64,000 nucleotides of DNA from an uncultured delta proteobacterium (GTDB lineage: Bacteria; Myxococcota; Myxococcia; Myxococcales; Myxococcaceae): the NCBI GenBank assembly GCA_963776345.1, contig CAVZMH010000022.1, positions 1 to 64,000 of the forward strand, read 5' to 3'. A program made the position numbers and the translations under genes. Shown here piece after piece: positions 1,443 through 35,731 of the stretch. The notes beneath the pieces were generated by a model, which saw only the letters and a program-made list of their open reading frames with translations, was not told where the DNA came from and did not search any database. Each line of letters opens with the position of its first letter. Within the stretch, counting starts at the first letter, position 1.

Positions 1443-1448
1443 GGGGGC

Positions 1449-5347: not shown

Positions 5348-5354
5348 CGGTCGG

Positions 5355-5663: not shown

Positions 5664-5675
5664 TCGCTCCCCCGA

Positions 5676-7504: not shown

Positions 7505-7515
7505 CGGCGACTCCC

Positions 7516-12094: not shown

Positions 12095-14980
<2,886 letters not shown>

Positions 14981-15878: not shown

Positions 15879-15947
15879 CCGGGCTTTGAACATCCTTGCG
15901 AGCTGCCCGTCGATGAGCTACGCGTCCCCAAACTCCGAGGGTCACTG

Positions 15948-16301
15948 ATGAAACACGCCCGTCTGTTCGCATCCCTGATTGCCGCTTCAACTCTCCTCAG
16001 CGCCACGGCGATGGCACAGGCCGACCCCAAGAAGGTCGAGCGGGCGTGGAAGGCCAAGTGCTCCTCCTGCCACGGCGCGGCGGGCAAGGCGGACACCGAG
16101 AAGGGTCAGCAGATGAAGGTCGTCGACATGACCACGGCGGAGTTCCAGGCGAAGAAGGACGACGAGCTCAAGAAGGCCATCCTGAACGGCATCAAGACGG
16201 AGAAGGGCGGCGTGAAGAAGGAGATGGACCCCTTCAAGGACGACCTGACGCCCGAACAGGTCGACGCTCTCATCGCCTACATCCGCGCGTTCAAGAAGTA
16301 G
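15948..16301 (+). CDS. Monoheme class I cytochrome c, copy 1
   Basis: Signal peptide, CSSCH, distal KKEMDPF, LTPEQVDALIAYIR. Confidence 0.92.
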   Translation: MKHARLFASLIAASTLLSATAMAQADPKKVERAWKAKCSSCHGAAGKADTEKGQQMKVVDMTTAEFQAKKDDELKKAILNGIKTEKGGVKKEMDPFKDDLTPEQVDALIAYIRAFKK

Positions 16302-16338
16302 AAGTCGGCGTCAGCGCGCCTCAACCTCGGGGTGGTCC

Positions 16339-16674
16339 ATGAAACACATCCGTCTCTCGGCGTCACTCGCAGCTGCTTCGGTTCTCCTCAGTACCGCAGC
16401 GCTCGCACAAGCAGATCCTAAGAAGACCGAGCGCACGTGGAAGTCCAAGTGCTCGTCCTGCCACGGCGCGGGGGGCAAGGGAGACACCGAGAAGGGTCAG
16501 CAGCTGAAGATCGTCGACATGACCACCGCTGGGTTCCAGGCCAAGAAGGACGACGAGCTCAAGAAGGCGATCCTCGACGGCGTCGAGAAGGAGAAGGGGC
16601 ACGCCTTCAAGGGCGACCTGACGCCCGAGCAAGTCGACGCCCTCGTCGCCTACGTCCGCGCGTTCAAGAAGTAG
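16339..16674 (+). CDS. Monoheme class I cytochrome c, copy 2 (distal Met loop replaced by a His-containing loop)
   Basis: Signal peptide and CSSCH. Six residues shorter; reads EKEKGHAF where the paralogues read KTEKGGVKxEMDxF. Confidence 0.9.
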   Translation: MKHIRLSASLAAASVLLSTAALAQADPKKTERTWKSKCSSCHGAGGKGDTEKGQQLKIVDMTTAGFQAKKDDELKKAILDGVEKEKGHAFKGDLTPEQVDALVAYVRAFKK

Positions 16675-16794
16675 GCGAAGTCGGCGGGAAGGACGACCGC
16701 TTCTCCCCGACCGGGCCCTTTGAAGCTTCTTGTCTCTCGCCCGTCCATACGGTAGGCGCCACTGAGGCGTCGTCGATTCGGAGGTCACTCACAT

Positions 16795-17148
16795 ATGAAA
16801 CACGCTCGTCTCTTGGCGTCCATCGTAGCGTCCTCGGTCCTCCTCAGCGCCACGGCGCTGGCCGCAGAAGACCCGAAGAAGACCGAGCGTACCTGGAAGT
16901 CCAAGTGTGCCTCCTGCCATGGGCAGACCGGCAAGGGAGACACCGAGAAGGGTCAGCAGATGAAGGTCAGCGACATGACCACCGCCGCGTACCAGGCGAA
17001 GAAGGACGACGAGTTCAAGAAGGCCATCCTGGATGGGGTCAAGACCGAGAAGGGCGGCGTGAAGCAGGAGATGGACGGCTTCAAGGCGGAGCTGACGCCC
17101 GAGCAGGTCGACGCCCTCATCGCCCACATCCGCGCGTTCAAGAAGTAG
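16795..17148 (+). CDS. Monoheme class I cytochrome c, copy 3
   Basis: Signal peptide, CASCH, distal KQEMDGF. Confidence 0.92.
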   Translation: MKHARLLASIVASSVLLSATALAAEDPKKTERTWKSKCASCHGQTGKGDTEKGQQMKVSDMTTAAYQAKKDDEFKKAILDGVKTEKGGVKQEMDGFKAELTPEQVDALIAHIRAFKK

Positions 17149-17385
17149 CGGAAGCCGGCCGGGAGCGGGCGCAAGGCCTGCTGTCCCGTCCGTGTTCCAG
17201 ACGAGCCCCGCGCCAGACACGGGGCAATCCGGGTGTCGCGAACGGGTCTCTAGACCATGGCGTGCGCCGGCCCTCGTCGGTCGGTGCCCGGCACCGGCTC
17301 AGCCGGGGGCTCCAGGCGACCGCCGCTCACCCGGGTGCTGTGCGCTCCTCGTCTACGGGTAGAGCGCAGCGCATCTCCGCTCGGG

Positions 17386-19065
17386 TTAGTGCGTGCTGCT
17401 CGACGACGGGAGATCACGGCCGGGAGGAGCCAGTCGCGGGACCAGGATCAGACCGGCCCCGTAGAGGACGAAGGAGACGAGCAACAGGAGTGGCTGACCA
17501 CTCGGTAGCCCTTGGAGCACCAGCACGACTCCCCCGAGGATCAGCGCGAGATACGCGATCCACTTGAGCTCGGGAAATGTCACCCGCCGCCGGATGAGCG
17601 CAAGCGACAGAGCGACCGCCACCGCCACCAGCGTCCGGGCGGTGGCGAGGCGCGCAAGATCTGCGGTGAAGGGGCTGCACGCCCGCACGATTGACGCGGC
17701 CAGTCCGGCGCTGCCGAGAAAGAGGAGCACGGCCGCGGGCAGGCGTCGCGATGCCCAGCTCGCCGGAGCGGGGAGAGAGAGCGACAGCGGGAAGGCGGTC
17801 GCGAGGTAGGTGAGCAGGACGAGGCCGAGCACGACGACGCTCCCGGGGCTCATCGCCGGCCAGGTCACCTCGCCGCCCGCGAGGACCTGCCAGATCCCAC
17901 GGAGCAACCCCGTGCTGAACGCCGCGCCCAGGGCGAGGAGCGCCGCGAACGACCAGAGCGAGTCGGGGTGCCTCCGGCGGCCGAGGAGCGCGGTGAGCAG
18001 CGCGAGCGCGGCCCAGAGCACGCCGCGCAGATCGCCGGGGCCGGGCAGCGCCACCGCGAAGGAGAGGAGCCCCAGGGACACGAGGGCGTAGAAGACGAAG
18101 TCCAGGTCGCGGTTGCCTCGCCGGGGAACGACCCGGGCCGCGAAGAACACCGCGAGCACGGCAGCGGTGAGGGCCGCCCCGGCCGCGGCGCCCGGGCCGG
18201 ACGCCCGGAGCGCTCCGGCCAGCCCGATGACCAGCCCGGCCAGCGTCTGGAGGGCCTCGAAGACGCCCACGGGTCGTGCAAGCGCTGCCGTCCGGCGAAG
18301 CACGTGGGCCAGTGACAGGCCGGCGAGCGCGAGCGAGTAGAGGAGGACCGGCGGGGTGGAGGTGACCACCGCGCGAAGAATGGCCAGATCGAGAACCAGG
18401 GCGGGAAGCCACCGGAGGGCTGCGAGCCCCGGACGGTCCCCCAGCCAGAAGGTCGCGCCCGCCAGGACGAGGAGGACCCCGGTGAATTCTGCTTTGGCCG
18501 GGGTCGCCCTCAGCAGGATGACGGTGGTGATCAGGCAGGACAGGACGCCGATCCAGGCCAGCCAGCCGAGTCGATCCCGCCAGGAGGCGATCAGGAGCAG
18601 GGCGGTGAAACCGACGAGCGTCAGCGCCGCGGCCCAGCTGGGCATCGCGCTCAGCCGTGTCGTCGTCTCCAGGATCAACGGGTACGCGATGAGGGCGGCG
18701 GTGACCCCGTGGAACCCTGCGCTCACCGCTGCGCCGCTCGCCGCCGCCCGGTGAGAGAAGAAGACCCACGCGGCCGCGAAGACGACTCCCAGGGCGACGC
18801 CGACGCCGCTGGGCAGCATCCGGCCGTCGGTGAGAGCACGGATGAGGAAGGCGCCGCCGAGCACGACGAAGCTGCGGCCCAGGAGCGTCACCCAACCTGC
18901 CATCGTCACGCCGGCGGGCGCGACGGCCGGGAGACGAGGTTCGCCCTCCGGCCAGGCGGGGGGGAACGACGGAAAGGGAAGCGACGCGAGCCTCTGCTCG
19001 AGCTGGTCGACCCGCTCGCTCAGCCGGGTCACCTTCTCTTCCAGTGCCTGCAGGCGGGTCTCCAT
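17386..19065 (-). CDS. Polytopic membrane protein (DUF2339-like)
   Basis: N-terminal coiled coil (RLQALEEKVTRLSERVDQLEQRL), Pro linker, then many TM helices. Last gene of the Rieske/cytb run. Confidence 0.7.
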   Translation of the reverse strand: METRLQALEEKVTRLSERVDQLEQRLASLPFPSFPPAWPEGEPRLPAVAPAGVTMAGWVTLLGRSFVVLGGAFLIRALTDGRMLPSGVGVALGVVFAAAWVFFSHRAAASGAAVSAGFHGVTAALIAYPLILETTTRLSAMPSWAAALTLVGFTALLLIASWRDRLGWLAWIGVLSCLITTVILLRATPAKAEFTGVLLVLAGATFWLGDRPGLAALRWLPALVLDLAILRAVVTSTPPVLLYSLALAGLSLAHVLRRTAALARPVGVFEALQTLAGLVIGLAGALRASGPGAAAGAALTAAVLAVFFAARVVPRRGNRDLDFVFYALVSLGLLSFAVALPGPGDLRGVLWAALALLTALLGRRRHPDSLWSFAALLALGAAFSTGLLRGIWQVLAGGEVTWPAMSPGSVVVLGLVLLTYLATAFPLSLSLPAPASWASRRLPAAVLLFLGSAGLAASIVRACSPFTADLARLATARTLVAVAVALSLALIRRRVTFPELKWIAYLALILGGVVLVLQGLPSGQPLLLLVSFVLYGAGLILVPRLAPPGRDLPSSSSTH

Positions 19066-19099
19066 GCTGCCCCCTGGAGCCGTGCGGAACGGCTCTACG

Positions 19100-20677
19100 T
19101 CACGGGGTGCGCCGGCCCTCGTTGGCCTTTGCCCGCCGCCGGCTCAGCTCGCGGATCTTGAACGCCATCGCCACGGCCAGGAAGGACATCAGCCCGATGG
19201 AGACCAGGAGCCCGTTGCGCCGATACCGCTGCTCGGCCCGTGTCGCTTGCAGGAGGTTCTCCGACTTGGAGACCGCCTCGCGGCCGGCCTTCGCCCCCTG
19301 ATCGAAGCCGCCCTTGTCGAAGGTGTGCACCCGCGTCCGGGTCTGCACCAGGGCCTCCTTCAGCTCCTCGAGGGAAGCCTGGATGGGTTCGGTATCGAGT
19401 CCGCGCGTCGCCAGCTGTTCCGCCTCGGGCCGGAGCTGCTCGCTCTTGGTGACCAGGTCCGCGAGGCTGCTCCGGAAGTAGCGCGCCGTCTCGTTGCACT
19501 CCGGGTTGTCCTTCGAGTGCTCGGCATGACAGGCGCCGCACAGGCCGTCCGGGGCAGCGGAGATCATCGCGTCGGTCGCCTTGGCGATCTCGTGCTTCCC
19601 GTGACACTTCTCGCACTCCGGCCAGTGGTTCTTCTCGAACGCCTGCTTGTGCTTGCTCCCGTCGAAGAACGTGGCGTTCTGGGCATGGCAGGTCCGGCAG
19701 ACCTGCGAGACCGAGGCCACCGCGGGCGGCATCGCCGCGTGGTTGCCATGGCAGCTGTTGCAGGCCGGAGCGCCCAGGTCGCCCTTCTCGAGGAGCGCCT
19801 TGCCGTGCACCGACTTCTTGAACTGCTCCACCTGGTTGGTGGGCAGGGGGGTCCCGTCGTCCTTCTGGTAGCCCGCCATGTACTTCGCGTCCGCATGGCA
19901 GTGGCCGCAGGTGTCCGGAATGGCCTGCGGGTGCACCTTGGACTGACGGCTCTTGGGGCCGCGGATGCCGTGCACGCCGTGACAGCTCACGCACTGCGCC
20001 GCCTTGGAGTCCTTCTTCTGCAAGAGGAGGATGCCGTGCTGGCTGTCCTGGTACTTGGCGAGCTGGTCGGTGGGGAGGGAGGGGTTGAAGCCCCGCATGA
20101 AGTTGGGGTCGGCGTGGCACCGGGCGCAGAACTCCGGGATCCAGGTGCGGTCCACGTGGCGCACGTCGGCCTTGGGCCAGCGGGCGGCGATGTCCGGGGT
20201 CATCACGTCCTTGTCCGGAGAGCCTCCATGGCACCCCGCGCAGGAGAGCCCGCGGCGGAAGTGCACGTCGCTCACGAAGTTCTTGAGGTTCAAGAGCTCG
20301 TTCGACTGGGTGGCCTTGGGATCGGCGGAGAAGAGATGGATCTTCTTCTGCGACTCGGGATCGGCGTGGCAGAGGATGCAGTTGTCGGAGAAGACGATCG
20401 CCGCCGCCTGGGAGGACAGCTCCAGGGAGAGGAGGACCTTGAGGTGCGCCGCTCCGCCCAGGGTGACCGCATCCACGTCCTTCCCGATGAGCTCGCGGGT
20501 GTGCAGCGGCAGCTTCTTCAAGTATGCGCGCTCGGTGTCTCCCAGGATCGGCTTGCCGTCCTTGCCCTTCTCCTCGAACAGCTTCTCCACGGACGCAGGG
20601 AGCTTGCCGTCGTCCGGTGCGGGCGCCGCCGGATCGGTGGCGGCCATGAGCAGGACCAGCGCCAGGAGCGAGCTCAT
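19100..20677 (-). CDS. Membrane-anchored nonaheme c-type cytochrome
   Basis: Signal peptide MSSLLALVLLMAA. Nine CxxCH: CILCH, CAGCH, CARCH, CVSCH, CGHCH, CNSCH, CRTCH, CEKCH, CGACH. Helical stalk and C-terminal TM. ATGA overlap with cytb. Confidence 0.92.
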   Translation of the reverse strand: MSSLLALVLLMAATDPAAPAPDDGKLPASVEKLFEEKGKDGKPILGDTERAYLKKLPLHTRELIGKDVDAVTLGGAAHLKVLLSLELSSQAAAIVFSDNCILCHADPESQKKIHLFSADPKATQSNELLNLKNFVSDVHFRRGLSCAGCHGGSPDKDVMTPDIAARWPKADVRHVDRTWIPEFCARCHADPNFMRGFNPSLPTDQLAKYQDSQHGILLLQKKDSKAAQCVSCHGVHGIRGPKSRQSKVHPQAIPDTCGHCHADAKYMAGYQKDDGTPLPTNQVEQFKKSVHGKALLEKGDLGAPACNSCHGNHAAMPPAVASVSQVCRTCHAQNATFFDGSKHKQAFEKNHWPECEKCHGKHEIAKATDAMISAAPDGLCGACHAEHSKDNPECNETARYFRSSLADLVTKSEQLRPEAEQLATRGLDTEPIQASLEELKEALVQTRTRVHTFDKGGFDQGAKAGREAVSKSENLLQATRAEQRYRRNGLLVSIGLMSFLAVAMAFKIRELSRRRAKANEGRRTP

Positions 20678-22044
20678 CTCGGCGCCTCCAGCGTCGTGCC
20701 GGGCTGCTTCCGGAGCGTCAGCACCAGCCCGGCGATGACCACCAGCACAGCGATGGCTCCCGCGACCAGGTAGTCCACCCCGAACACGCCGTTGAGCACC
20801 ACTTGCAGCAGCGCTGCCCCGGAGAAGAACATCCAGCGCTGCTTGTAGGCGAGGATCCGGAGCAGGGCGACGGCGGATCCGATCCCCAGCGTGATCAGCG
20901 AGCAGGTCCAGGCGGTCGATCGGGGATCCGGGAGCTTCGAGTGGTCGGCGCTTCCCCCGCCGATGTCCCAGGCCTTCAGCATGAGATAGGCCATGAACAC
21001 GATGGCGGCGATGCCCAGATCGGTGAACATCGGGGAGGACTGGTTCTTGCCGGCGCGCCGGTCCAGCCAGGGCACCAGCGCCCAGATCCCCATCAGCACC
21101 GTCACCACCAGCAGCGCCGCCTGCGGTCCCTCCATCCCGAAGAGGTGCGCCGGGAACTCCTTGAGCAGCTGGTAGACCCAGAGGAAGTACCACTCGGGCT
21201 TGATGCCCGGGTACGCGGGCGCGAGCGGGTTGGCCTTCTTTCCCAGCTCCCACTCCATCCCCGGGATGCCGGGCCCGTAGGGGAGCAGGTACACCAGGGC
21301 GCTCAGGGCGATCAGGCACACCAGCCACAGGAGGAGGTCCCGGAGGATGAAGTCCGGAAAGAACTTGAGGCCCGGCCGGGCCTTGGGCTGGTGCGCCATC
21401 GCCGGCGCCATGCCCTGGACCTGGATGAACAGGAGGTGCGTGGACACCACCCCCACCATGACCAGCGGCAGGATGACCACGTGCAGGGCGAAGAAGCGGT
21501 AGAGCGTGTTGATGGTGACGTCCGGCCCGCCGCGCATCACCTCCAGGAGCCACTGCCCGATCACCGGCACGCTCTTCACGGAGTCGGTGCCCACGGCGGT
21601 GGCGAAGAAGGCCAGCTCGTTCCACGGCAGCAGGTAGCCGGAGAAGCCGAAGCCCAGGGCGATGGCGAAGAGCACGAAGCCGCTGAGCCAGGTCAGCTCC
21701 CGGGGCCTCCGGTACGCCTTCAGCATCAGCGTGCTGAACATGTGCACGACGAGCGAGACGATCATCAGATGGGCGCTCCAGCAGTGGATGGAGCGAATCA
21801 GCCACCCGAAGGGCACCTTGGTCGTGATGTAGCGGATCGACTCGTACGAGGTCTGCTCGCCCGCCTGGTAGTACATGAGCAGCAGCACGCCCGAGGCGAG
21901 CTGGACGGTGAAGAAGAACAGCGTCGCGCCGCCCAGGTAGTACCAGACCATGGAGTGGCCGCCGACCGGCACCTCCTTGTGCCGGGCCCACTCCACCAGC
22001 TTCCCGAGCCCGAAGCGGGCGTCCAGCCAGCGGTAGAGGCGCAC
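20674..22044 (-). CDS. Cytochrome b of a Rieske/cytb complex (unsplit, extended C-terminus)
   Basis: YYLGG, GWLIRSIHCWSAH, FSGYLLPW, RFFALHVVILP, IKPEWYFL Qo motif. Confidence 0.95.
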   Translation of the reverse strand: MRLYRWLDARFGLGKLVEWARHKEVPVGGHSMVWYYLGGATLFFFTVQLASGVLLLMYYQAGEQTSYESIRYITTKVPFGWLIRSIHCWSAHLMIVSLVVHMFSTLMLKAYRRPRELTWLSGFVLFAIALGFGFSGYLLPWNELAFFATAVGTDSVKSVPVIGQWLLEVMRGGPDVTINTLYRFFALHVVILPLVMVGVVSTHLLFIQVQGMAPAMAHQPKARPGLKFFPDFILRDLLLWLVCLIALSALVYLLPYGPGIPGMEWELGKKANPLAPAYPGIKPEWYFLWVYQLLKEFPAHLFGMEGPQAALLVVTVLMGIWALVPWLDRRAGKNQSSPMFTDLGIAAIVFMAYLMLKAWDIGGGSADHSKLPDPRSTAWTCSLITLGIGSAVALLRILAYKQRWMFFSGAALLQVVLNGVFGVDYLVAGAIAVLVVIAGLVLTLRKQPGTTLEAPR

Positions 22045-22083
22045 GCCGGTGGAAGCGGGCGCCGCCTGGCCCTGGAGCCTCCA

Positions 22084-22542
22084 TCACGCCGTCTCCATGC
22101 TCAGCGTCACCTGGTCCCCCTCGCGGGTCGCCACCCACTTCGTCAGCGGGCGGGGCGGCGGACCGGAGAGCACCCGCCCGTCGAGATCGAACTTGCCGTT
22201 GTGGCAGGCGCACCAGATGAGCGAGTCGCCCGGGACGAACTGGACCGTGCAGCCCTCGTGGGTGCACTTGGCGTCCAGGGCGTGCAGCTGCCCGCCCGCC
22301 TCGAAGACGATCACCTTCCGGGTGCCAGATCGCGCGATGACGAAGTGCGACTTGTTGAGGATGGAGAGCTCCTCCGCGCTCAGCTTCAGCGGGCCGCCCG
22401 CGCCCACGCTCGACAGTGGCCGCAGGAAGCGCAGCGTCGGATAGAGAATGCTGGCGGCCCAGCCGAGGACGCCCGCGCCCAGGAACCAGTTCAGGACGCT
22501 GCGCCGCTCCGGCTTCGAGGTCTGAGTGACAGGAGCCGTCAT
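22084..22542 (-). CDS. Rieske [2Fe-2S] protein
   Basis: Tat-like RRSVL plus TM; CTHEGC and CACHNGKF boxes; GPPPRPL. Confidence 0.93.
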   Translation of the reverse strand: MTAPVTQTSKPERRSVLNWFLGAGVLGWAASILYPTLRFLRPLSSVGAGGPLKLSAEELSILNKSHFVIARSGTRKVIVFEAGGQLHALDAKCTHEGCTVQFVPGDSLIWCACHNGKFDLDGRVLSGPPPRPLTKWVATREGDQVTLSMETA

Positions 22543-22996
22543 GTCCACCGTCCGTTCGGGTTTCGCCGGGCGGGAAGGGTCGTTGGAAAGCAAGGCGCTG
22601 TCACGGAATTTCACGGCTGGCGTGAGTTCCCCGCCTGCAGCGCTTCCGGCCTGTCCGACGAGACGTTCGGCGTCGTCGCAGCCCTCGTTCGTCGGCCGAA
22701 CGCCTGATCGCCCATCGGTCGCCGCGGGCCTTCCGCCCGCCCCCACGGCGCCCACTTCTGGTGAATCGACCTCGACCTGGCGTGTGATCCCGTGGTGGAG
22801 CGCTCCATCCGCGCAGATCCTGCAGACAGCGACCCGACGAGGGCAGACCTTGCGCCGCTGGATCGCGCCGGATCGCCTCGCGCAGCGGCGCGAGCTCGAG
22901 AGGTCCGGTTCTTGCTCGGCCGCCGCTGATGATTCCTTCGGGGGGCTCCTCCTTCGGTCGGGATCAGGATGACAACACCCTCGGAATGGGGGAGAG

Positions 22997-23012
22997 TGTC
23001 ATACAGATGACA
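22997..23012. promoter_or_regulatory. Perfect 6-4-6 inverted repeat TGTCAT-acag-ATGACA, candidate operator
   Basis: In the divergent Rieske/decaheme intergenic region, just upstream of the GGAGG RBS. Extra ATGACA half-site at 22969-22974. Confidence 0.5.
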
Positions 23013-23026
23013 TTTGGGAGGGTCTC

Positions 23027-25973
23027 ATGAAGATGCGCATCCCCCTCGCAGCACTGGCCATCGTCGCTCTCTCCCTGGGCTGTAGCGGGGAGCAGGGCCC
23101 GGCCGGCCCGGCCGGCCCGGCCGGTCCACAGGGCCCTGCTGGCCCCGGCGGCGATGCCGGACCCGGGGCCGTGGTCATCGTCCCGAGCAACTCCGTCCCC
23201 CCCACCGACGCCAGTTCCGCGGCCTGGGCAGCGCTTGCGCCCAAAGTGACCGTCCAGAGCGTCACCATCAGCAGCCCGCCCGTCGTGAAATTCACGGTGA
23301 CGGATGCCGCCGGTGCCCCGGTCGTGGGTCTGGGCAACACATCCAAGAGCAGCACGGCCACCGTCGCCGGTTACACGAACCTCGCCTTCGCCATGGCCAA
23401 GCTGGTGCCGAGCGCCAACGGGTCCCCCAGCAGGTGGGTCAGCTACATCGTGACGACGGTGCCGACGACGACCGCGGCCAGCGACCCCACCCGGCCGAGC
23501 ACCGACAACACCGGCACCCTGGTGGACAACGGCGACGGGACCTACGCGTACACGTTCTATCGGGACGTCACCAGATCAAGGCCACGGTGGCGGGGATGAC
23601 GCTCCGGCAACACCAACGCGGCCGACCTGGGCGATCTGACCTACGACTCGAGCCTGGTGCACCGGCTGACCATCCAGCTGGCGGGCAATGCGCCTGGCAC
23701 CGGCAGCAACACCCCCACCGGCGGTGACGAACGTCCCGGGCGTGCCGCTGCAGAACGCGGTGGACGCCATCTACGATTTCACTCCCTCCAACGGCCAGCG
23801 GTGACGACCTCGGGTCGGGACATGGTGACGACCACGAACTGCAATACCTGTCACCAGGTCCTCGGCGGCATTCCGGGCGACAACCCCGAGGCCTCCGGTG
23901 CGGGCTTCCACGGCGGAAGTCGCAACGAGGTCCGCTACTGCGTGGTCTGCCACACCGAGCAGCGCAAGTACGGCAGGACCGAGGCAACGCGTGACGCCGC
24001 GCTGAACTTCACCTCGACACGACCTACCGGTTCTACGACCGCGCGGTCGGCAACCTGCCCAACATGATCCACAAGACCCACGTGGCTTCGGTGATGGCGT
24101 ACAAGAACTACAACTACGCCGACGTGTTGTTCAACGAGGTCCTGTACCCGCAGGACATCCGGAACTGCAACAAGTGTCACGACGCCACGAATCCTACGAC
24201 CCCGGACGCCAAGAACTGCAGGAACGTTCCGAGCCGGCTGGCCTGCGGCGCGTGTCACGATGGAATCGACTTCGCGACCGGCCACGGCGTGACCATGGCC
24301 GACGCGTGGACGGGGCTGACCGAGACGACGCTCTACCACGGGCTTTGCACACGGGCGGGTCCACAGCCGGACGACTCGCACTGCCTCCAGTGCCACGGAC
24401 CGGACGTGACATCGACGCGGTACCACACCCCGGTGACGCCACCGAACCCCGGCAACGCGCTGCGTGCCTGGCGGGAACGCCAACACCAACGCGGCCTGGA
24501 TCGCCTCCAACCCCGCCCGGAAGCCGACCGGGGCGATCGCGGTCACCTACGACATCAAGAGCGTCTCGGTGAACGCGAGCAAGCAGCCCGGTCATCGTGT
24601 TCCGGATGCTGCAGGACGGTCAGCGGAAGGACCTCAACGACTTCGCGACCGCGACAGCCAATCCGGCGACAGGACAGAAGGAGATCTGGGACAACTTCAT
24701 GGGCGGGCCCAGCCTCTACTTCGTGTTCGCGGTGCCGCAGGACGGAGTGACGACCCCGGCGGACTTCAACGCCACCGCCAGCGGCTACCTGAGGACCATC
24801 TGGAACGGCAGCGCGACCGGTACCGGAGCGGGCACGCTGACGGGCCCCGACGCCGACGGCTACTACACGGGAACGCTCACCGGGGTGACCATTCCCGACG
24901 AGCGCGGTCATGCTCACCGGTGGCATCGGGTACTCGTACAGCCTCACCAGCACGCTGCCGCTGACCCAGACCAACCTCACGAAGTACCCTGTCACGGCAC
25001 CCACGGCGACCCGGTGGCCTGCGCCACGTCCACCACGAACGTCGTGCAAGGTGGGCGGCCTGATCGTCATCGCCCCCAACGTCAAGAAGGTCGCGACCGG
25101 GTACACTGGCCGGCGGGCCATCGTCGAGGACGCGCGCTGCAACGCTTGCCACCAGGAGCTCGGCACGTTCACCGAGGACGCCTTCCACGCCGGACAGCGG
25201 AACGACGGGACCACCTGCTCGTGGTGCCACACGCCGAACCGTGCCAGCGGCGGCTGGTCGGCGGACTCCGTCTACTTCGTGCACGCCATTCACGCGGGTG
25301 CGAAGCGGAGCACCAAGTTCACCTGGGACGCCGCGACCGCGACCTCGTCCTTCAAGGACGTCGCGTATCCGGGAGTCCTGAACTTCTGCGAAGGGTGCCA
25401 CATCCCGGGCGGCTACGTCAACTTCAGAACTTCGCCTCGGACGCCGCCATGGCGAACCGGCTCTACCGGACGGTCGCCACCGGCTCCTTCAGCGGCAACG
25501 TGGGCGATACGATCACCAACTACTCGCGGTCGCGACCTGCACCACTCAGACCCAGTCGTCGCGCGGCGACTGCCGTGGGCGTGCACACGCTCTCTCCATA
25601 CTTCCCGCCCACCGCGAATCGGGACGTCCGACGCCCAACTACGGCGTTAATCCACAGCTTCTACAATGCCGGGTTGCCACGTCACGCCGAACGCGGCGTG
25701 CACGCCGGACGGCACTCGTACACGATCCCGGCCGGGAAGACCTTGATGGACGTCCCGACGGCGAATGCGGCCTATCAAAAGAACCTGGTGAACTCGCCCG
25801 TCGCCGGGATGTGCTTCGCCTGCCACGACACGTCGGCCGCCATGGCGCACTTCGAGCTCAACGGCGGCTCGCTCTACACGGCACGCAGCACCGCGCTGAA
25901 CACGACCGAGACCTGCCTGATCTGCCACGGCAGCGGCCGGATCGCGGACATCGCGGAAGTGCACTCGCACTAG
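23027..25973 (+). CDS. OmcA/MtrC-family decaheme lipoprotein 1, broken by multiple frameshifts in this sequence
   Basis: Lipobox LSLGC, collagen-like GPA linker, GTLVDNGDGTYAYTF. Ten CxxCH across frames in a 5+5 layout: CNTCH, CVVCH, CNKCH, CGACH, CLQCH, CNACH, CSWCH, CEGCH, CFACH, CLICH. Confidence 0.88.
23095..23150 (+). repeat. Gly-Pro-X collagen-like tandem repeat (GGCCCGGCC units)
   Basis: GPAGPAGPAGPQGPAGPG directly after the lipidated Cys. Confidence 0.8.
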
Positions 25974-26180
25974 CTGAATCGAAGCGGTTCAGTGGCGGCG
26001 CTGGAGCACGTTGCACCGTTCTCCAGCGCCGCCGCGCCGTACCCAGGCGGTGGCGATTCGGAGCACCATGAACGGACTTGCGTCGTCCGAGCCCGAGGAA
26101 TTCTCACCCCGGCAGAGGGACCGGGAGGTAGAGTTCCTCATGGTCGCGGGGCCCGAGGGGGCCGGCGCGGGGGAACGGCG

Positions 26181-28722
26181 ATGAGGTTCGCGCGGTCGCT
26201 GTTGGGAGTGGTGGTGGTCCTCGGCCTCGGGTGCCTGGGCGATCGAGGACCGCAGGGACCTGCGGGCGAGCCAGGACCCGCGGGCCCCGCCGGCGGCGGC
26301 GGCGACGCCGGTCCTACGTCGTGCGCGGGACCCATCGCCGTGGACCTCGGCCTGTCGAGCCCGCTCAACGGCCAGTTCTTCACCGCGGGGGAGCGGGCCG
26401 TGGTGACCATCACCTTCGTCGATTCCTGCGGACAAAAGATCCCTCCCGCCAACCTCGGCTCCACTGCCGACTTCTTCGTCGTGGGGCCCCGTTCACCCCT
26501 CCAGACGGTCACGGCGTACAACCTCCTGAACTCCACGCCGGGGCCGTTCACTGCCCAGGGGCTCAAACCGCTCGCGGACGGCGGCGTTCCGAACCCGAAC
26601 ATGACCGTCCAGCCGGATGGGACGGTGGTCTACACGCTGAACCCCATCACCACCGAGGCGCCGGGCACGTACACCGCCTCGGTCTGGGCAATCGGCCCCG
26701 ACCCGCTCAACCAGATGTTCGCCCTCAAGGACTTCCAGATCGGGACTTCCACCGTCGAGCAATACGCGAGCGGACCGGCGGAGGACTCGAGCTGCGCGAG
26801 CTGCCACCGGAACGCCGCCCCGGGCGGCAAGACGTACATGGCGCACATCGCCCCGGGCTTCTCACCGGTGGGCAACTACGCGCTCGACTCGCTCCCCATC
26901 GGCAGCTGCAAGGCCTGCCACAACAACGCCGGGTACAGCCCCAATCCCTTGCTGCGCAAGGTCCACGGGGTCCACCGCGGCGAGCACCAGCTTGCCCCGG
27001 GCGCTGCGCACCCGGAATACGGCTTCGGCACGGACACCTCGCTCCCCGCCTTCCTCAACGTCGGCTTCCCGGCGATGCCCACCGGTGGAACGCCAGGCGT
27101 GGCGCTGCCCGCCTCGGTGGCGATGGAGAAGAGCTGCACCAGCTGCCACGTCGACGACGTGTGGAAGACCAAGGCCTCCCGCGCGGCCTGCGGGACCTGC
27201 CATGACAACGTCTTCTTCTCCGGAACGCTCCTGCCGGATGGAGGGGTCGACCCGGGCGCGACCACCGCCGCCATCACCCCGCCAACGGTGCTCGGGTTCC
27301 CCACCGGGACCACCGGCTGCACCAACGATGCGAGCTGCAGCGCCCTGAGCTCCATCGCCACGTGCAACACCACCACCAAGAACTGCGAGCTGACCTACCA
27401 CGCGAGGCAGGACGACGATGCGCAGTGCTCGACCTGTCATGCGGCGAGCAGCGTCGTCTCTCCGGTCACCCTGGCGCACCAGATCGCCCCCTACGACCCG
27501 CCGGTCAGCCTCGAGGGCTACACGTTCCAGAACGTCACCGTCACCGGGGGCACCGGGCCGAGCGGCAGCTTCCAGGTGGGCGACACACCGGTCCTCAGCT
27601 TCCAGCTCTTCGACAACCAGTACCAGCCCGTGGCCGACCTCGCGACCAGTGCCGCCTGGGCGGGCACCTTCCTCGTCGCCGGCCCCACCAGCAACCCCCA
27701 GCGCGTCTACGGAGCCGGGTCGGGTGGCCTGAACATGAAGACCCCGGCGCAGGGAACGCTCGCCTACAACGCCGGCACCCAGACCTATACGTACACGCCC
27801 GCCGCCACCTGGCCGGCGAGCTCCATCGCGCCGCTGAACAACCCGGGGGCCGGGACCCAGACCAATCCCAGCGGCAGCTACACCGTCTGGTTCTACTGGG
27901 CGAAGACCACCAGCGGGGTCCGTGACGCGGTGGATGCCCAGAAGGTCGTTGCCTTCGGCGGCGCCGTCCCACTCCAGGCCCGCCAGGTCGTCACCCAGGG
28001 GGCATGCGCCTCGTGCCATGGTCAGACGGCCGGTGGCTTCCCGCACCTCGCCCTCCACGGTGGACAGCGGAAGAACGGCGAGACCTGCAGCACCTGCCAC
28101 ACCCAGAATGCCTTCGACCGGGTGGTGGGAGCGACCGGAGCGGCCTGCACCACCAGCGCCCAGTGCGCGGGCAACGCCGCGGGGTGGGAGGCCTGCGTGG
28201 CCAACGTCTGCACCGTGACCGTGGACCCGACCCCGGGCGTCACCGTCGACTATCAGCGACTGGTGCACAGCATCCACTTCGCGCGGCTGCGCGAGGGCTA
28301 CGTCGAGCGCAACAACCTGGTCGATCCGGGGACGCTGCAGTACCTGGGCTTCAACAACAGCCTGCTCGAGCTTCCAGGAGATCCTCTCGCCGGTCGACGT
28401 CCGGTCGTGCACCAACTGCCACCAGGACACCAATGCGACCTGCTCGTCGAGCGCGCCCTGCGGCTACGGCCAGAGCTGCGCGTCTCCGGCAAGTGCGTCA
28501 ACATCGCCTGGCAGACTCCCACCGCGCGGGCCTGCATCACCTGCCATGACTCGGGCGCGGCCGCCGAGCACGCCCAGGCCAACACCGCCAACCTGAACGG
28601 CACCCTCGTGGAGACGTGCGAGCTCTGCCACGGCCCGGACCGGCCCTACTCGGTGGCCGCGGAGCACAACATCACCTCCCAGTACAGCCAGCCACCTGGC
28701 CTACCCACGCGAGAAGGAATAG
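26181..28722 (+). CDS. OmcA/MtrC-like decaheme lipoprotein 2 with cysteine-rich inserts (frameshifts near 28370, 28480, 28695)
   Basis: Lipobox LGLGC and GPQGPAGEPGPAGPAG linker. Ten CxxCH: CASCH, CKACH, CTSCH, CGTCH, CSTCH, CASCH, CSTCH, CTNCH (shifted frame), CITCH, CELCH. Stop inferred at TAG 28720-28722. Confidence 0.85.
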
Positions 28723-28761
28723 CCGCCCTCGGACCGCAGCCGAACGGAGCGTCACCGGATC

Positions 28762-30043
28762 ATGAACCGAGAGATCTTCGGTCACATCGCTGGGGCTGGC
28801 ACGCGGTGGGCGACTCTCGCGCTGCTCCTGACCGCCTGGGTGCCGGTGGCGGAGGCCCAGGTCATCGACGCCAGCTCGACGACGATGCTGCGCCTCAAGC
28901 CGGAGTGGAAGGCCGGGGACACCCAGACTGGCTTCTGGGGCACGGAGCTGGTGGGCCTCTCGGTGCGAGGCATCGAGGTGGCCGGGGTCGACGACTTCCG
29001 TATCCAGCTCTCCGCCTGGGGACAGCTCGCCTCGATCGGCGACTCGATCTACTCCGGCACCACCGGCGACATCGATCTCCTCTACGTCCAGGGGTCGCTG
29101 TTCAATCGGCATCTCAGCCTGACGATCGGAAGGCAGCTCGTCTCCGGAGGGGCGGCCCGGATGCTCCAGCTGGATGGGGTGAACGCCACCGTCGCCATCA
29201 CCAGGGCCTTCGGGGTCACCGCCTTCGCGGGCGCCCCCACGGTCTCCCGCTTCAACTATCCGGTCGGGGAGTTCGCCTTCGGGGGGAGGGCCTACTGGAG
29301 GCCCACCTTCGGGACCGAGCTGGGAGTCTCCTTCCTCGAGATCCTGAGCGGCGGCGTCCTCTCCAGGCAGGACGTGGGGAGTGGACGGACGCTGGGCGAT
29401 CCTCTCCAACCTGTCGGCCACGGCCTCGGGCATCCTGAGCGTCCAGGAAGCCCGCTTCGCGGACGCCGATCTCACCGTCCACTGGCAGATCCTTCCCACC
29501 CTCGAGGTCTTCGCCAAGGGAGAGCATACCTCGCCGGACCTCTTCCTCCCCATGACCTCCATCTTCACCGTGTTCGCCAACACCAACCGCGACGCGGCGG
29601 GAGGAGGGGTGTTCTGGCAGGCGCTCCCGCGCCTCTCGTTCTACGGCGAGTACAACAGGCTCTGGGTGGACGGTGGGAACGGCGATGAAGCCGAGCTGCG
29701 GGCCACCTACCGGCTCGCACGCAAGTCGACCATCGGGGTGAACGCCCGGTTCCTCTTCGTCCCGGTCAACGGAGCGACCGAGCTGCGCGCCTGGATCCTC
29801 CATTCCTTGACCGACCGGATCAAGCTGGCCGCCGATGTGGAGGGAACGCTGCTGCAGAACGCGATCAACCTGAAGGGAGAGTCCATCGTGGGGACGGGCA
29901 GCGCGAGCTGGGCGATCGGCTCGGGATGGAGCGCGCTGCTCAGTGGCTCCGTCGGGACCACGCCCTTCTTCCAGACCGCCTACACGCTCACCGCCCGGCT
30001 CGGGTACAACTTCCTGAGCTCGGACAAGGGAGCGAGTCGATGA
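28762..30043 (+). CDS. Outer-membrane beta-barrel porin of a porin-cytochrome conduit (one frameshift near 29380)
   Basis: Signal peptide ending AEA-Q, alternating amphipathic strands throughout, C-terminal ARLGYNF-like strand. Lies between multiheme genes; ORFs 28762..29688 and 29381..30043 join. Confidence 0.78.
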
Positions 30044-31101
30044 CCTGGCGGGCCCTCGGCGCGCGCGGTTCGGTGGTGGCCATCCTGCTCCTGGGCTGGG
30101 TCGGGTCCGCCGAGGCTGGCGAGGCGATCACCATCGACCCCAACCATGCCGGCCACATCAAGGCCGGCCTGGAGTGTCTCACCTGCCACGAGACCATCTT
30201 CGACGAGACGGCGCTGGGGCAGCCCGGGGCTTTCCCCAAGGAGGCCAAGTGCCTCTCCTGCCACAAGAAGGAGAAGGAAGCGGGCAAGTGCGGGATGTGC
30301 CACCTGCAGGCGGACAAGCCAGGCACCTACGTCAAGAAGGCGCCTTACCTCTTCATGAACCACGCCAAGCACCTCGAGAAGGACGAGAAGTGCGAGGTCT
30401 GCCACCAGACGCTCCCGGCGCGTGGCCAGCTGGAGAAGCCGGTTCCTCCCATGAAGACCTGCCTGGGGTGTCACAACCACCAGGACCAGTTCTCCAGCGG
30501 CCAGTGCTACGCCTGCCATCTGGATCTGACTCACTTCCCGCTCAGGCCCACCACCGCCTTCAGCCACCAGGGAAACTTCACCCGCCTCCACCCCTCCATC
30601 GCCCGATCGACCTCCGCGGCCTGTGACACCTGCCACGAGCAGAGCTTCTGCGCGGACTGCCACGCCGCGAGGACCCGTCCGATGAGGATCGAGGAGATCA
30701 CGCCGGAGCGGGTGGACCGGAACTTCATCCACTGGGGCGACTTCCTCACCCGTCACTCGATCGAGGCGCGTGGGAACCAGGCGGCCTGCCAGAAGTGCCA
30801 CCAGGTCACCTTCTGCACGGACTGCCACCGCAAGCAGAGGCTGACGTCCGACTCGGACAACCCGCTCAATCCGCACCCCGGCGGCTGGCTCACGCCCGGA
30901 AGCCCCAGCTTCCACGGCTCGGCCGCGCGGCGCGACATCGTGAGCTGCGCCGGCTGCCATGACCAGGGGGCCCAGTCCAACTGCGTGAGCTGCCATCGCG
31001 TCGGCGGTCCGGGCGGCGACCCCCACCCACCGGACTGGACCGGCCGGCACCCACCCTCCGAGATCAACCGCAACTCCATGTGCCTGTCATGTCATCAATA
31101 G
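30040..31101 (+). CDS. Periplasmic 13-heme c-type cytochrome
   Basis: Signal peptide ending AEA. Thirteen CxxCH, including doublets CDTCHEQSFCADCH and CQKCHQVTFCTDCH. ATGA overlap with the porin. Confidence 0.92.
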   Translation: MTWRALGARGSVVAILLLGWVGSAEAGEAITIDPNHAGHIKAGLECLTCHETIFDETALGQPGAFPKEAKCLSCHKKEKEAGKCGMCHLQADKPGTYVKKAPYLFMNHAKHLEKDEKCEVCHQTLPARGQLEKPVPPMKTCLGCHNHQDQFSSGQCYACHLDLTHFPLRPTTAFSHQGNFTRLHPSIARSTSAACDTCHEQSFCADCHAARTRPMRIEEITPERVDRNFIHWGDFLTRHSIEARGNQAACQKCHQVTFCTDCHRKQRLTSDSDNPLNPHPGGWLTPGSPSFHGSAARRDIVSCAGCHDQGAQSNCVSCHRVGGPGGDPHPPDWTGRHPPSEINRNSMCLSCHQ

Positions 31102-32735
31102 ACGGCCCGACGCGAAGGCAGGTCGCGCTGCTGGCGGCGGTCCTGGCCCTGACCGCCTGCGAGGGGCGTCCCCAGAACCTGGGACAGGCCAAGTGCGACG
31201 ACAGCTACGCCCAGGGCGTGGGACCGGTGCTGCAGTCACGCTGCGCCTCCTGCCACTCCGCCGCCCTGTCCGAGGGCGACTACCGGGTGGACAGCTACCA
31301 GGCGGCCATCGCCCGCCGGCCGGACGGGACGCCGCGGGTCCGTTCCGGGGACGACAGCTCGCTCCTGCTCCTGGCCGCGCGGGGGACGCTGCCCGGCGGC
31401 CACGTGGCCATCCCCCAGAACGAGATCTCCGAGCTCCAGAGCTGGGTGGTCCAGTGCGCGCTCAAGCCCCAGGCCTACACCGTGCACATCAACGGCTGGA
31501 TGGACCCGGGAAACACCGACCAGTTCCATGGACGCGTGCTGCGGCAGGCCGTCTACGACCTGACCGGCTGCAAGGCGTGCCACGGGGAGGATCTGGCCGG
31601 CGGCACGGTCGGCGTCGCCTGCCAGAGCTGCCACGTCTCCGGGGTGATGGCGTGCAACATGTGCCACGGGAACACGGCGAACGCGGCTCCGCCCCGGAAC
31701 CTGGACTACCTCTCCGCCACCTCGCTGGTGACGGTGGGCGCGCACCAGTCTCACGTCACCGACGGTCCGATGCACACGGCCTTCTCCTGCGAGGTGTGCC
31801 ACAAGACCCCCACCAAGCCGGCGGACGAGGGCCACTACCAGACGGGAGGCAAGCTCCTGACGGGGCCTGCGCCGGTGATCGTCCAGAGCGGCCCCGCGGG
31901 CGCCTTCTCCTGGGACCGGGCGAACGCCACCTGCACCAACAGCTACTGCCACGCGCCCATCCAGGACGCCAATGCCTCCCCCATCAACCCGGTCTGGACC
32001 GCGGTGGGTCAGGGCCAGGCACCCTGCGGCAGCTGCCACGGGAACCCTCCGGCGGGGCATGGACCGGAGACGCGCTGCGACACCTGTCACCGCCCGACCT
32101 TCGTGAATGGGCAACCGAGCTCGGCCCTTCACGCCAACGGCCAGATCGATCTGGCGGCGCCCACCGGCAGCTGCGTGGGATGCCACGGGAGCGGCGACAA
32201 CCCGGCGCCTCCCATCGATCTCCTCGGTCGCTCCGACCCGGCCCTGCAGACGGTGGGAGCGCACCGGGAGCACCTGGGCGCGCTGCACAAGGTCTCCGCG
32301 CCGGTGGCCTGCAAGGAGTGCCATCTCGTGCCCACGGCGATCTCCAGCCCGGGCCACATCGACACGGCCGCGCCCGCCGAGGTCTTCCCGCCAGGGGCGG
32401 GCGTGCTGGCGGTGGCGGACGGCGCCCAGGCCTCCTACGACCACGACCGCCGCGACCTGCACCGCGTACTGCCACGGGTCGGGGGCGCGTCTGACGCAGG
32501 ACACCTCTCCCAGCGTCAATCGCACGCCGGTCTGGAACGGCGGCTCGGGGCAGGCGGCATGCGGAAGCTGCCACGGGATTCCGCCGAAGGTGCCGGGGAC
32601 CACGTACCACGTCGGCGTGACCAGCATCACCCAGTGCGCGGCCTGCCACCCGATTCCGTCACCCCGGAAGGGAACATCAAGGTGGATGCCTCCGGCAACT
32701 CCACCCACCTGAACGGCATCGTCGACGCGCCCTGA
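31089..32735 (+). CDS. Multiheme lipoprotein cytochrome with CxxxxCH/CxxCH domains (compensated frameshift about 32450-32652)
   Basis: Lipobox LTAC and an N-terminal planctomycete-cytochrome-like domain. Eleven CxxCH plus CTNSYCH and CTAYCH; duplicated APP...VGAH module. Confidence 0.87.
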   Translation: MSSIDGPTRRQVALLAAVLALTACEGRPQNLGQAKCDDSYAQGVGPVLQSRCASCHSAALSEGDYRVDSYQAAIARRPDGTPRVRSGDDSSLLLLAARGTLPGGHVAIPQNEISELQSWVVQCALKPQAYTVHINGWMDPGNTDQFHGRVLRQAVYDLTGCKACHGEDLAGGTVGVACQSCHVSGVMACNMCHGNTANAAPPRNLDYLSATSLVTVGAHQSHVTDGPMHTAFSCEVCHKTPTKPADEGHYQTGGKLLTGPAPVIVQSGPAGAFSWDRANATCTNSYCHAPIQDANASPINPVWTAVGQGQAPCGSCHGNPPAGHGPETRCDTCHRPTFVNGQPSSALHANGQIDLAAPTGSCVGCHGSGDNPAPPIDLLGRSDPALQTVGAHREHLGALHKVSAPVACKECHLVPTAISSPGHIDTAAPAEVFPPGAGVLAVADGAQASYDHDRRDLHRVLPRVGGASDAGHLSQRQSHAGLERRLGAGGMRKLPRDSAEGAGDHVPRRRDQHHPVRGLPPDSVTPEGNIKVDASGNSTHLNGIVDAP

Positions 32736-32837
32736 GCGCTGCAGGCAGGCGCCCACCTCCGGGGGCACCTTCTCTTCGCCGGCCCCCCTGGTTGACCTGC
32801 CGGGACGGGTCGGTGAAATGGAGATCGCGGAGGTGGC

Positions 32838-34957: not shown

Positions 34958-35731
34958 CTATCCGCGGGGCGGGCGAGCCGGGAGCAGCGCCTCCGCCCGG
35001 GCGAGGTCCTCGGGCGTGTCGACGCCGATGCTCGGGTGGGCCGTCCGGACGCAGCGGATCCGGATCCCGTGCTCCAGCGCGCGCAGCTGCTCGAGCGACT
35101 CGGCGCGCTCGAGCGGCGTCGGCGCCAGCGTGGCGAGGCGGAGGAGCGTCGCCCGCCGGTACCCGTAGAGCCCCTGGTGTGCCCAGCGTTCGACCGGTGA
35201 ACCGCTCCGGTCGAACGGCACGTCCGCGCGGCTGAAGTAGAGCGCGTCCGAGCGCAGGTCGACGAGCGCCTTCACCACGTTGGGGTTGCTCCGCTCCTCG
35301 GGGCGGAGCGCTCGGATGAGGGTGGCCATCTCCACCGCCGGGTCCTCGAACGCGCCTGCCAGCGCGCGGAGCGCCTCCGGGTGGATCAGCGGCTCGTCGC
35401 CCTGGACGTTGACCACCACCTCGACCTCGCGGGGCAGCCGGGTGGCGACCTCGGCGACCCGGTCGGTCCCCGAGGGGTGATGCGCCGCGGTGCGCTCCAC
35501 CGTGCCACCGGCCGCCGTCACCGCCGCGGCGATGCGCTCGTCGTCGGTGGCCACTCGCACGTCCGAGAACGCGCCCGAGCCGCGGCAGGCCTCGAGGACG
35601 TGGACGACGATGGGACGTCCGGCGAGCAGGGCCAGCGGCTTGCCGGGGAAGCGGGTGGAGGCCCAGCGGGCGGGGATGACGGCGACGGGCTTCACGCGGG
35701 TCTCCCGTGGACTATCCACCGCCTGCGCCAT
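34958..35731 (-). CDS. kdsB: 3-deoxy-manno-octulosonate cytidylyltransferase
   Basis: VIPARWASTRFPGKPL, SGTDR, VNVQGDEP, ALYFSR, ESLEQLRALE, GVDTPEDL. Confidence 0.96.
   Translation of the reverse strand: MAQAVDSPRETRVKPVAVIPARWASTRFPGKPLALLAGRPIVVHVLEACRGSGAFSDVRVATDDERIAAAVTAAGGTVERTAAHHPSGTDRVAEVATRLPREVEVVVNVQGDEPLIHPEALRALAGAFEDPAVEMATLIRALRPEERSNPNVVKALVDLRSDALYFSRADVPFDRSGSPVERWAHQGLYGYRRATLLRLATLAPTPLERAESLEQLRALEHGIRIRCVRTAHPSIGVDTPEDLARAEALLPARPPRG

Follow-up and report, generated by a model that had tools for sequence, protein, structure and literature searches.

A multiheme locus linking a Rieske/cytochrome b–nonaheme module to a Pcc-type barrel and MtrC-family decahemes in an uncultured Myxococcaceae bacterium: a candidate route for outward electron transfer

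The exit of electrons from the quinone pool towards acceptors outside the cell, and the energy conserved at this step, is an open question; the characterised entry points CymA, ImcH, CbcL and CbcBA are simple quinol oxidases, and the Rieske/cytochrome b clusters of Geobacter have no demonstrated role with metal oxides. At the outer membrane, porin-cytochrome conduits (Pcc) have porins of 18–22 strands, and the group IV Pcc of Anaeromyxobacter are two-gene clusters with a periplasmic cytochrome of 12–14 hemes in 338–344 amino acids (PMC4245776). Mtr and Pcc systems can co-exist in one organism (PMC12133095), and metagenome-assembled genomes (MAGs) of lake Myxococcota are rich in MtrC, ExtABC, CbcL and novel multiheme cytochromes (10.1101/2022.03.26.485925). 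In this work, a block of ~17 kb was analysed that lies within a 64-kb window (the whole stretch of DNA under study) from the 5.1-Mb, 98%-complete genome of an uncultured member of the Myxococcaceae. The block encodes a Rieske protein, a cytochrome b and a nonaheme cytochrome on one arm and an outer-membrane barrel with several multiheme cytochromes on the other.

We propose, at a probability of roughly one half, that the locus transfers electrons outward from menaquinol to Fe(III), Mn(IV) or humics, with the Rieske complex as a proton-pumping, high-potential entry; outward transfer with several quinol entry points is the most likely reading of the locus. Menaquinol would be oxidised at the Qo site of cytochrome b, where the observed motifs suggest a Q-cycle, and electrons would pass from the Rieske centre to the nonaheme cytochrome. 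The periplasm may be bridged by His/Met and His/His monoheme cytochromes or by direct contact. The 13-heme cytochrome is expected to cross the outer membrane inside a barrel of predicted 22-strand fold, a complex postulated after the Pcc model, and a CxxxxCH lipoprotein and two MtrC-family decahemes, one of them (D1) an observed member of that family, would hand electrons to the acceptor. Acceptors of lower potential would fall to the ImcH-like and CbcL-like proteins, as they do in Geobacter, and the Rieske/cytochrome b complex is predicted to be the high-potential, high-yield entry because a Q-cycle complex drives only acceptors above the Rieske potential. A menaquinol Rieske/cytochrome b complex can indeed drive electrogenic anaerobic respiration (PMC6195509).

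A six-frame scan revealed 56 CxxCH motifs between positions 15948 and 32735 (3+9+10+10+13+11), to which the last lipoprotein gene adds CTNSYCH and CTAYCH (two CX3–4CH). The locus total of 58 agrees with the count in a first-pass annotation of this DNA. The remaining 47 kb of the window holds one CxxCH, and the codon-shuffled region had a mean of 0.7 and a maximum of three (30 shuffles). Pfam matches comprised three class I monohemes, the Rieske protein and a cytochrome b that is not split. Both decaheme genes matched MtrC/MtrF domains II/IV (PF22113), and the last lipoprotein the CxxxxCH domain; together with the motif scan these matches bear out the gene content and strands given in that annotation (Table 1). 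PDB sequence searches returned no match for the nonaheme cytochrome, the porin profile, the CxxxxCH lipoprotein or the ImcH-like protein of relatives.

The linkage of the two arms was followed across 301 Myxococcales genomes using profile matches for the nonaheme cytochrome and the porin (codes: G, genomes, with G000 that of the window; L, locus stretches; X, sequencing runs; f, families; C, contigs). The nonaheme cytochrome was matched at E ≤ 1e-40 in 27 genomes. A porin is present somewhere in 23 of them, as compared with 139 of all 301 genomes; within family f1, all 10 non-self nonaheme genomes have the porin versus 42 of 168, the kin in both comparisons not being independent. In 11 of the 27, from four genera and two families, nonaheme and porin lie within 13 kb on the same contig (G000, G007, G008, G010, G167, G244, G305, G045, G062, G130 and G136; for G062 and G130 as seen from match coordinates only), and in 12 the porin lies on a different contig, most of these assemblies being fragmented. 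The concern that the arms might never co-occur in relatives is thereby answered by synteny. Gene order varies. In G045, from another family, one strand reads Rieske–cytochrome b–nonaheme–MtrC-like–CxxxxCH–porin–13-heme, and in G004, G007, G008, G010, L041 and L049 the Rieske–cytochrome b–nonaheme run converges on three monoheme genes, with D2 to porin starting from a second divergent region. The single divergent promoter region around which the first-pass annotation had seen the parts arranged is therefore lineage-specific and not a conserved design; most same-genus relatives have two.

The inner-membrane arm looks, from its motifs, like a menaquinol-type Rieske/cytochrome b complex with an intact Qo site. 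PEWY and the four heme-b histidines were found in 23 of 23 cytochrome b copies, and among 25 Rieske copies CTHEGC was found in 24 and the CxCH box in all, both sets including some duplicates. The second Rieske box, CACHNG(K/R)(F/Y), is without the potential-raising Ser and has Phe for Tyr in most copies, and we take the missing Ser and Tyr to mark a lower-potential Rieske protein. Menaquinol-type Rieske centres lie at about +100 to +150 mV. The nonaheme cytochrome is predicted to be the c-subunit of the complex. Wherever both were observed in a locus, the Rieske-arm genes were adjacent and co-directional. The window cytochrome b is the sole PF00033 match found in the host genome, which carries the classical menaquinone gene menB, whereas futalosine genes were not found in it. 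It further holds three heme-copper oxidase-family genes, one of cbb3 type, and three NrfD-containing clusters, one of them ACIII-like and beside an oxidase. The housekeeping role of complex III thus seems covered, and the Rieske/cytochrome b complex seems to be left for a special task. A gene for an NrfA-like protein (L079:12101-12853, G000:C14) has only a 251-residue partial frame, which may be another assembly break.

Among the neighbouring monohemes, the HxFK variant of c2 recurs in same-genus loci. The membrane-protein gene of the minus-strand run is present as annotated; its product is DUF2339-like and has no redox motif. For the DUF2339 assignment, an ESM Atlas feature scored 0.97, with DUF2339 in 31–46% of cluster members, which is a lead only. 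The gene travels with the locus, and in relatives it usually directly precedes the ImcH-like gene. Other arrangements of the Rieske arm were observed in G205, where two Rieske/cytochrome b/nonaheme operons stand side by side and diverge (L071:385-5867), and in G031 (L052–L053, G031:C35:82000-118000), where genes for 11, 28 and 10 hemes come after the arm and 19-heme, 9-heme and ImcH-like genes are found in the vicinity; the gap at this arm of G031 gave no porin-profile match.

Table 1. Coordinates of the features of the locus, in window positions.
Feature	Position	Strand	Remarks
Limits of relocated block	15886..32798		flanking genes are neighbours in relatives; X7 contig joins 15885 to 32799
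Cytochrome c c1, monoheme class I	15948..16301	+	PF00034/PF13442, signal peptide, predicted His/Met (axial Met aligned)
Cytochrome c c2, monoheme	16339..16674	+	6-residue deletion, His for axial Met; predicted His/His
Cytochrome c c3, monoheme class I	16795..17148	+	predicted His/Met
DUF2339-like membrane protein	17386..19065	-	~15 hydrophobic segments, no redox motif
Nonaheme cytochrome c	19100..20677	-	signal peptide, C-terminal helical bundle, membrane anchor; weak HAO-like fold
Cytochrome b (unsplit)	20674..22044	-	PF00033+PF00032; PEWY, His87/101/188/203, no Cys at heme-ci position
Rieske protein	22084..22542	-	PF00355; twin-arginine leader; boxes CTHEGC / CACHNGKFD
Rieske–D1 divergent intergenic region	22543..23026	.	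pairing kept in G004, G007, G010, G001, G006, L037, L049
D1, MtrC/OmcA-family decaheme lipoprotein	23027..25973	+	~14 frameshifts here, intact in relatives
13-bp perfect inverted repeat after D1	25994..26033	.	no T-run; possible terminator or processing hairpin
D2, second divergent MtrC-like decaheme lipoprotein	26181..28722	+	PF22113 above cut-off; 3 frameshifts
Outer-membrane beta-barrel	28762..30043	+	orthologue with 22 strands, no plug domain; 1 frameshift near 29380
13-heme periplasmic cytochrome c	30040..31101	+	353 amino acids, signal peptide, c7-like repeats; gene overlaps porin gene
13-heme lipoprotein (11 CxxCH + 2 CX3-4CH), Geobacter-type CxxxxCH domains	31080..32735	+	TIGR01904 above cut-off; 2 frameshifts

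The orthologue of the barrel from G010 (430 amino acids, ~71% identical) was modelled with AlphaFold2 from 78 sequences as 22 strands with the plug domain absent (mean pLDDT 81). This is within the range of Pcc porins, and a predicted unplugged pore of this size speaks against the earlier worry that the product might be too small a barrel to hold a cytochrome. The model aligned with usher and TonB-receptor barrels at VIA Z 18–20 and with MtrB at VIA Z 15.9 (root-mean-square deviation 4.3, 323 residues aligned); a Geobacter Omb-type barrel was absent among the fold-search matches listed, which excludes nothing. Those relatives of the barrel that carry a name come from MAGs of uncultured Myxococcaceae. 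As the barrel matches neither Pfam nor NCBIfam, screens with these profile libraries miss it, and its own profile, which matched 76 of 77 genomes in family f7, would be a useful marker. Homologous pairs of a porin and a 12-heme cytochrome in f7 show 32–47% identity; in G030 the pair has no other multiheme gene adjoining, and in G036 it is joined by one small CxxxxCH gene. Family f7 is probably Anaeromyxobacter-like and the porin a member of the group IV Pcc family, an assignment made by description only.

For the 13-heme periplasmic partner, which by analogy with the Pcc model would thread the barrel, no TIGR03508 (MtrA/DmsE) match was obtained. The pair fits the Pcc type described for Anaeromyxobacter and not MtrB. 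With an unplugged 22-strand pore, arms that co-occur in relatives and a cluster that is intact there, the porin-cytochrome conduit of the first-pass annotation is supported. Profile searches for MtrB, which it had recommended along with MtrC/OmcA, and for MtrA gave no match: neither a large MtrB-family barrel (the product having 430 amino acids, 22 strands and no NCBIfam or Pfam match) nor an MtrA/DmsE decaheme is present, and since MtrA and MtrB are absent, the locus is not MtrCAB.

The MtrC/OmcA decaheme model was passed by the D1 orthologue with 437 bits (TIGR03507, cut-off 209), and it also matched MtrF and MtrC structures; D2 scored 121–132 bits, below the cut-off. The surface parts are of a different lineage from the Pcc-type barrel. 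In domain III of D1, a CX7–11C pair lies 30–43 residues before heme 6 in seven of seven close orthologues and is absent from two distant D1-like proteins and from every D2. It is reminiscent of the oxygen-gating disulfide of MtrC (PMC9973256, PMC4486940). A small diheme cytochrome follows the CxxxxCH gene in G010 (L019:7425-7871), with three homologues in G000 on C16, C18 and C19.

Six porin loci from the same genus were examined. All six contain an ImcH-like gene, whose product has six heme motifs, a PF03264 match and three N-terminal helices, and four of them also contain a CbcL-like gene, encoding a membrane domain together with 13 c-heme motifs. In G004, G007, G008 and G305, all three inner-membrane modules and the conduit are contiguous. 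The ImcH-like protein has the architecture of ImcH (three N-terminal helices, a NapC/NirT region and 5–9 heme motifs per PMC6295460), and the CbcL-like protein combines its 13 c-heme motifs with five C-terminal helices carrying His pairs, the b domain having no Pfam match; both names rest on architecture by the definition of PMC6295460, not on alignment to Geobacter proteins. In the host genome these genes lie on another contig (C11; G000:C11:25525-29501, L057), behind a relic of the DUF2339-like gene, whereas in the closest locus, L037 (99% Rieske identity), the membrane-protein gene runs straight into imcH. Misassembly through an identical repeat was considered as a cause of the C11 placement and rejected, the relic being 77% identical to the membrane-protein gene. 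In G021, a 9-Mb single-contig Myxococcaceae genome, genes for a NapC-type tetraheme, a 23-heme cytochrome and an MtrC-like decaheme diverge from porin, 12-heme and CxxxxCH genes (L035:12622-17993).

With ImcH-like and CbcL-like genes in the loci of relatives, there are up to three candidates for the quinol interface, the Rieske/cytochrome b complex being one. The first-pass annotation had described a candidate complete conduit with a Rieske/cytochrome b quinol interface; the latter is present, but the locus is incomplete here, the ImcH-like and CbcL-like parts found in relatives' loci sitting on C11. In Geobacter, ImcH serves acceptors above and CbcL acceptors below about −0.1 V (10.1101/2021.04.15.440034). 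We tentatively suggest, as a possibility short of an even chance, that in soil and wetland Myxococcales three quinol oxidases (the Q-cycle Rieske/cytochrome b–nonaheme complex and the ImcH-like and CbcL-like proteins) feed one hybrid conduit of Pcc barrel and MtrC decahemes. If true, extracellular respiration would gain from this modular three-oxidase super-locus a branch that pumps protons, has a high yield and is chosen by acceptor potential.

The direction of electron flow had been judged unreadable from the sequence. It is still only favoured, yet an outward flow can be argued because ImcH and surface proteins of the MtrC type are features of reducers in the literature consulted (PMC6295460, PMC4245776, 10.1101/2022.03.26.485925), a similar cytochrome of Anaeromyxobacter rises during Mn(IV) reduction (PMC4245776) and no RuBisCO match was found in the 98%-complete host genome. 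The locus could instead serve mainly electron uptake, with Fe(II), reduced humics or partner cells as donors, passing electrons via the monohemes to cbb3/aa3 oxidases with Rieske/cytochrome b reversed, or be used both ways across oxic–anoxic cycles. The heme-copper oxidases of the host would suit such a role, as would a Rieske potential fit for reverse flow from higher-potential carriers, and the clusters of Fe(II) oxidisers, too, contain CbcL/MtoC-family proteins and small monoheme shuttles (PMC6295460, PMC8805035). Against this stand, besides the Mn(IV) response and the missing RuBisCO, the two MtrC-family surface decahemes, a part missing from the known oxidative systems (PMC4245776, 10.1101/2022.03.26.485925), and the 2018 survey, in which ImcH hosts capable of extracellular electron transfer were all electron exporters (PMC6295460). 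We consider uptake or two-way use improbable.

Several observations weigh against the proposed outward pathway through the Rieske complex. Four of the 27 nonaheme genomes have no porin match, most porin genomes have no nonaheme cytochrome, and in the near-complete G057 and G189 the Rieske arm and the porin are truly split, on different large contigs; the linkage is therefore modular rather than obligate. With a pLDDT of 82, the model of the nonaheme cytochrome showed a weak likeness to HAO-family enzymes, at a Foldseek E of 0.03 (TM 0.32) and at VIA Z 9.0–9.6 over 258–278 residues, tied with unrelated helical bundles, and with an HAO-like fold the protein may have a soluble substrate of its own. 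A Rieske centre at +100 to +150 mV would be more positive than many Fe(III) oxides and the majority of multiheme wires, so that the Rieske route would be limited to high-potential acceptors. A comparable Rieske/cytochrome b cluster, extH–S of Geobacter, is dispensable for Fe(III) oxide reduction (PMC5877670). As to the window itself, RNA evidence amounts to a weak hint: run X20 yielded short near-identical pieces of the locus (0/256, 2/190 and 1/217 differences) at a depth of 2–4, which were not counted as expression. Frame changes outside the locus occurred in one of 32 query rows (redundant rows, by a method that missed compensated shifts in D2), and with so low a background D1 is unusually bad.

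The conduit may accordingly be real and fed by ImcH-like and CbcL-like proteins, with the Rieske arm a separate module, clustered because redox genes travel together; the arm might then reduce a soluble N-oxide as an HAO-like enzyme, or donate electrons to monohemes and oxidases. The fold of the nonaheme cytochrome and the split in G057 and G189 speak for such a module, as do three distant f7 nonaheme copies with the porin on other contigs and no conduit nearby. So do G032, with conduit, ImcH and CbcL, and G021, with conduit and a NapC-type gene, neither showing a Rieske gene in the stretches fetched, and the extH–S precedent (PMC5877670). The linkage, however, recurs in four genera and two families in differing orders, once as a single-strand run. 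Outside the motifs, eight His and three Met are invariant among the 121 nonaheme sequences, and one further His is kept at 94%. These conserved ligands would suffice for closing all nine hemes, leaving no need for an open catalytic site. We regard a separate Rieske module, the main alternative, as unlikely and retain outward transfer with the Rieske complex as one entry.

Frameshift-aware alignment to intact orthologues detected 20 frameshifts, 14 in D1, three in D2, one in the barrel and two in the last lipoprotein, and no in-frame stops in the frameshifted genes. They are probably assembly errors, judging from the sequences of relatives: close relatives carry intact versions of these genes, and at least five of the six breaks outside D1 are absent in contigs of a related strain (X1), which carry compensating single-base differences at 28367, 28479, 28690, 29381 and 32443; X3 contigs carry such differences at three of these five positions. 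The decayed cluster that the first-pass annotation had feared is thus not what the relatives show. The surface arm, at least D1, could still be decaying after relocation in the window strain and leave the locus partly non-functional, as the 14 D1 frameshifts over a low background and the parting of the relocated block from ImcH and CbcL would suggest. This is very improbable in view of the lack of nonsense codons, the compensating differences in the related strain, the intact left arm and the D1 gene of L037, which is 92% identical at the DNA level to that of the window and open over the 923 codons covered.

Five sequencing runs were compared and used for the habitat (three soil metagenomes from three studies, one sediment RNA run and one other). 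X1 contigs, from a strain ~96% alike, bridge membrane protein–nonaheme–cytochrome b, cytochrome b–Rieske–decaheme 1, decaheme 1–decaheme 2, and decaheme 2 through to a cardiolipin synthase-like gene. For the joint of the third monoheme and the membrane protein (17289–17418), the contig pieces listed contain no bridge; an X3 contig runs 4.2 kb past 17289 on different sequence, so that related strains may hold extra genes there. The block appears to be mobile and relocated to its present site, because its flanking genes are neighbours, 40–310 bp apart, in five of five same-genus genomes and an X7 contig joins the two flanks directly.

The insertion site is flanked by pyrG (12910–14568), a kdsB-like cytidylyltransferase gene (34961–35731) and the cardiolipin synthase-like gene; a query frame antisense to pyrG was given no weight in the comparisons of gene order. 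Complex I (nuo) genes occupy positions 1–8016 on the minus strand, at a distance of 8 kb; given the relocation of the block, this proximity is probably incidental. In two genomes of the same genus, the locus is followed by genes of the hemerythrin-domain and pyridoxamine-oxidase-like kinds (L022:17607-18840, L024:9075-11683).

The packaging of inner- and outer-membrane parts in one cluster, to which the first-pass annotation had drawn attention, is already known from mtrCAB with cymA, pdsA or mtoC, from PCC3/PCC4 and from Geobacter extH–S. Group IV Pcc of Anaeromyxobacter resembles the present locus in having an 18–22-strand barrel adjoining a 12–14-heme periplasmic cytochrome of ~340–350 amino acids (PMC4245776). 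Compared by description, it consists of two genes, whereas here three surface lipoprotein cytochromes, three monohemes and the Rieske/cytochrome b–nonaheme arm are added (PMC4245776), and relatives of this locus also add ImcH-like and CbcL-like genes. Shewanella-type MtrCAB clusters with cymA, pdsA, mtoC or mtoD share the MtrC/OmcA-family surface decahemes and the whole envelope path in one mobile, modular cluster (PMC8805035, PMC6295460). They differ in the MtrA decaheme and in MtrB, a much larger barrel of 28 predicted strands (PMC4245776), both lacking here, and in having CymA as the inner-membrane partner where this locus has Rieske/cytochrome b; the word Rieske is absent from the main text of PMC8805035 and PMC6295460.

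G. sulfurreducens extHIJKLMNOPQS/Cbc6 likewise clusters a porin-like gene, multihemes, Rieske and cytochrome b, but ExtI is similar to phosphate porins, and a pcc-like nature of the cluster is expressly denied; its cytochrome b is short (ExtP, 23 kDa), it is linked to selenite and tellurite reduction, and it has no MtrC (PMC5877670). A model of ExtP scored below cut-off against the window cytochrome b. Geobacter ImcH, CbcL and CbcBA (10.1101/2021.04.15.440034) are comparable in that several inner-membrane quinol oxidases could serve different acceptor potentials, and ImcH-like and CbcL-like architectures are present here; in Geobacter they lie in separate clusters, whereas relatives here place two such oxidases and Rieske/cytochrome b beside the conduit, and the 2018 survey found no imcH beside mtrAB/mtoAB genes (PMC6295460). 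PCC3/PCC4 also cluster a porin, periplasmic and extracellular multihemes and an inner-membrane redox protein, the latter being a five-helix diheme b protein of ~300 amino acids, not Rieske/cytochrome b (PMC5566968). Anammox Rieske/cytochrome b complexes with multiheme or HAO-like c-subunits are likewise of menaquinol type and serve acceptors other than oxygen, but feed soluble periplasmic enzymes and not an outer-membrane conduit. Campylobacter QcrABC is a menaquinol-type Rieske/cytochrome b complex for non-oxygen acceptors, too, but feeds soluble periplasmic enzymes (PMC6195509).

In a literature search that took in few subscription papers and no supplements, neither a Rieske/cytochrome b–nonaheme arm linked to a Pcc barrel and MtrC decahemes nor three quinol oxidases in one conduit locus were found, and the available text of PMC9386147 and PMC6896113 describes no cluster of such kind. 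The present locus probably includes an energy-conserving step that is missing from the known conduits of this kind. The recurrent linkage of Rieske/cytochrome b to the conduit points to Q-cycle-coupled extracellular respiration, provides a compact gene set for testing it, and marks uncultured soil Myxococcaceae as likely respirers of iron, manganese or humics. Compared with the systems above, the locus joins Pcc-type and Mtr-type parts, which are usually viewed as independent inventions.

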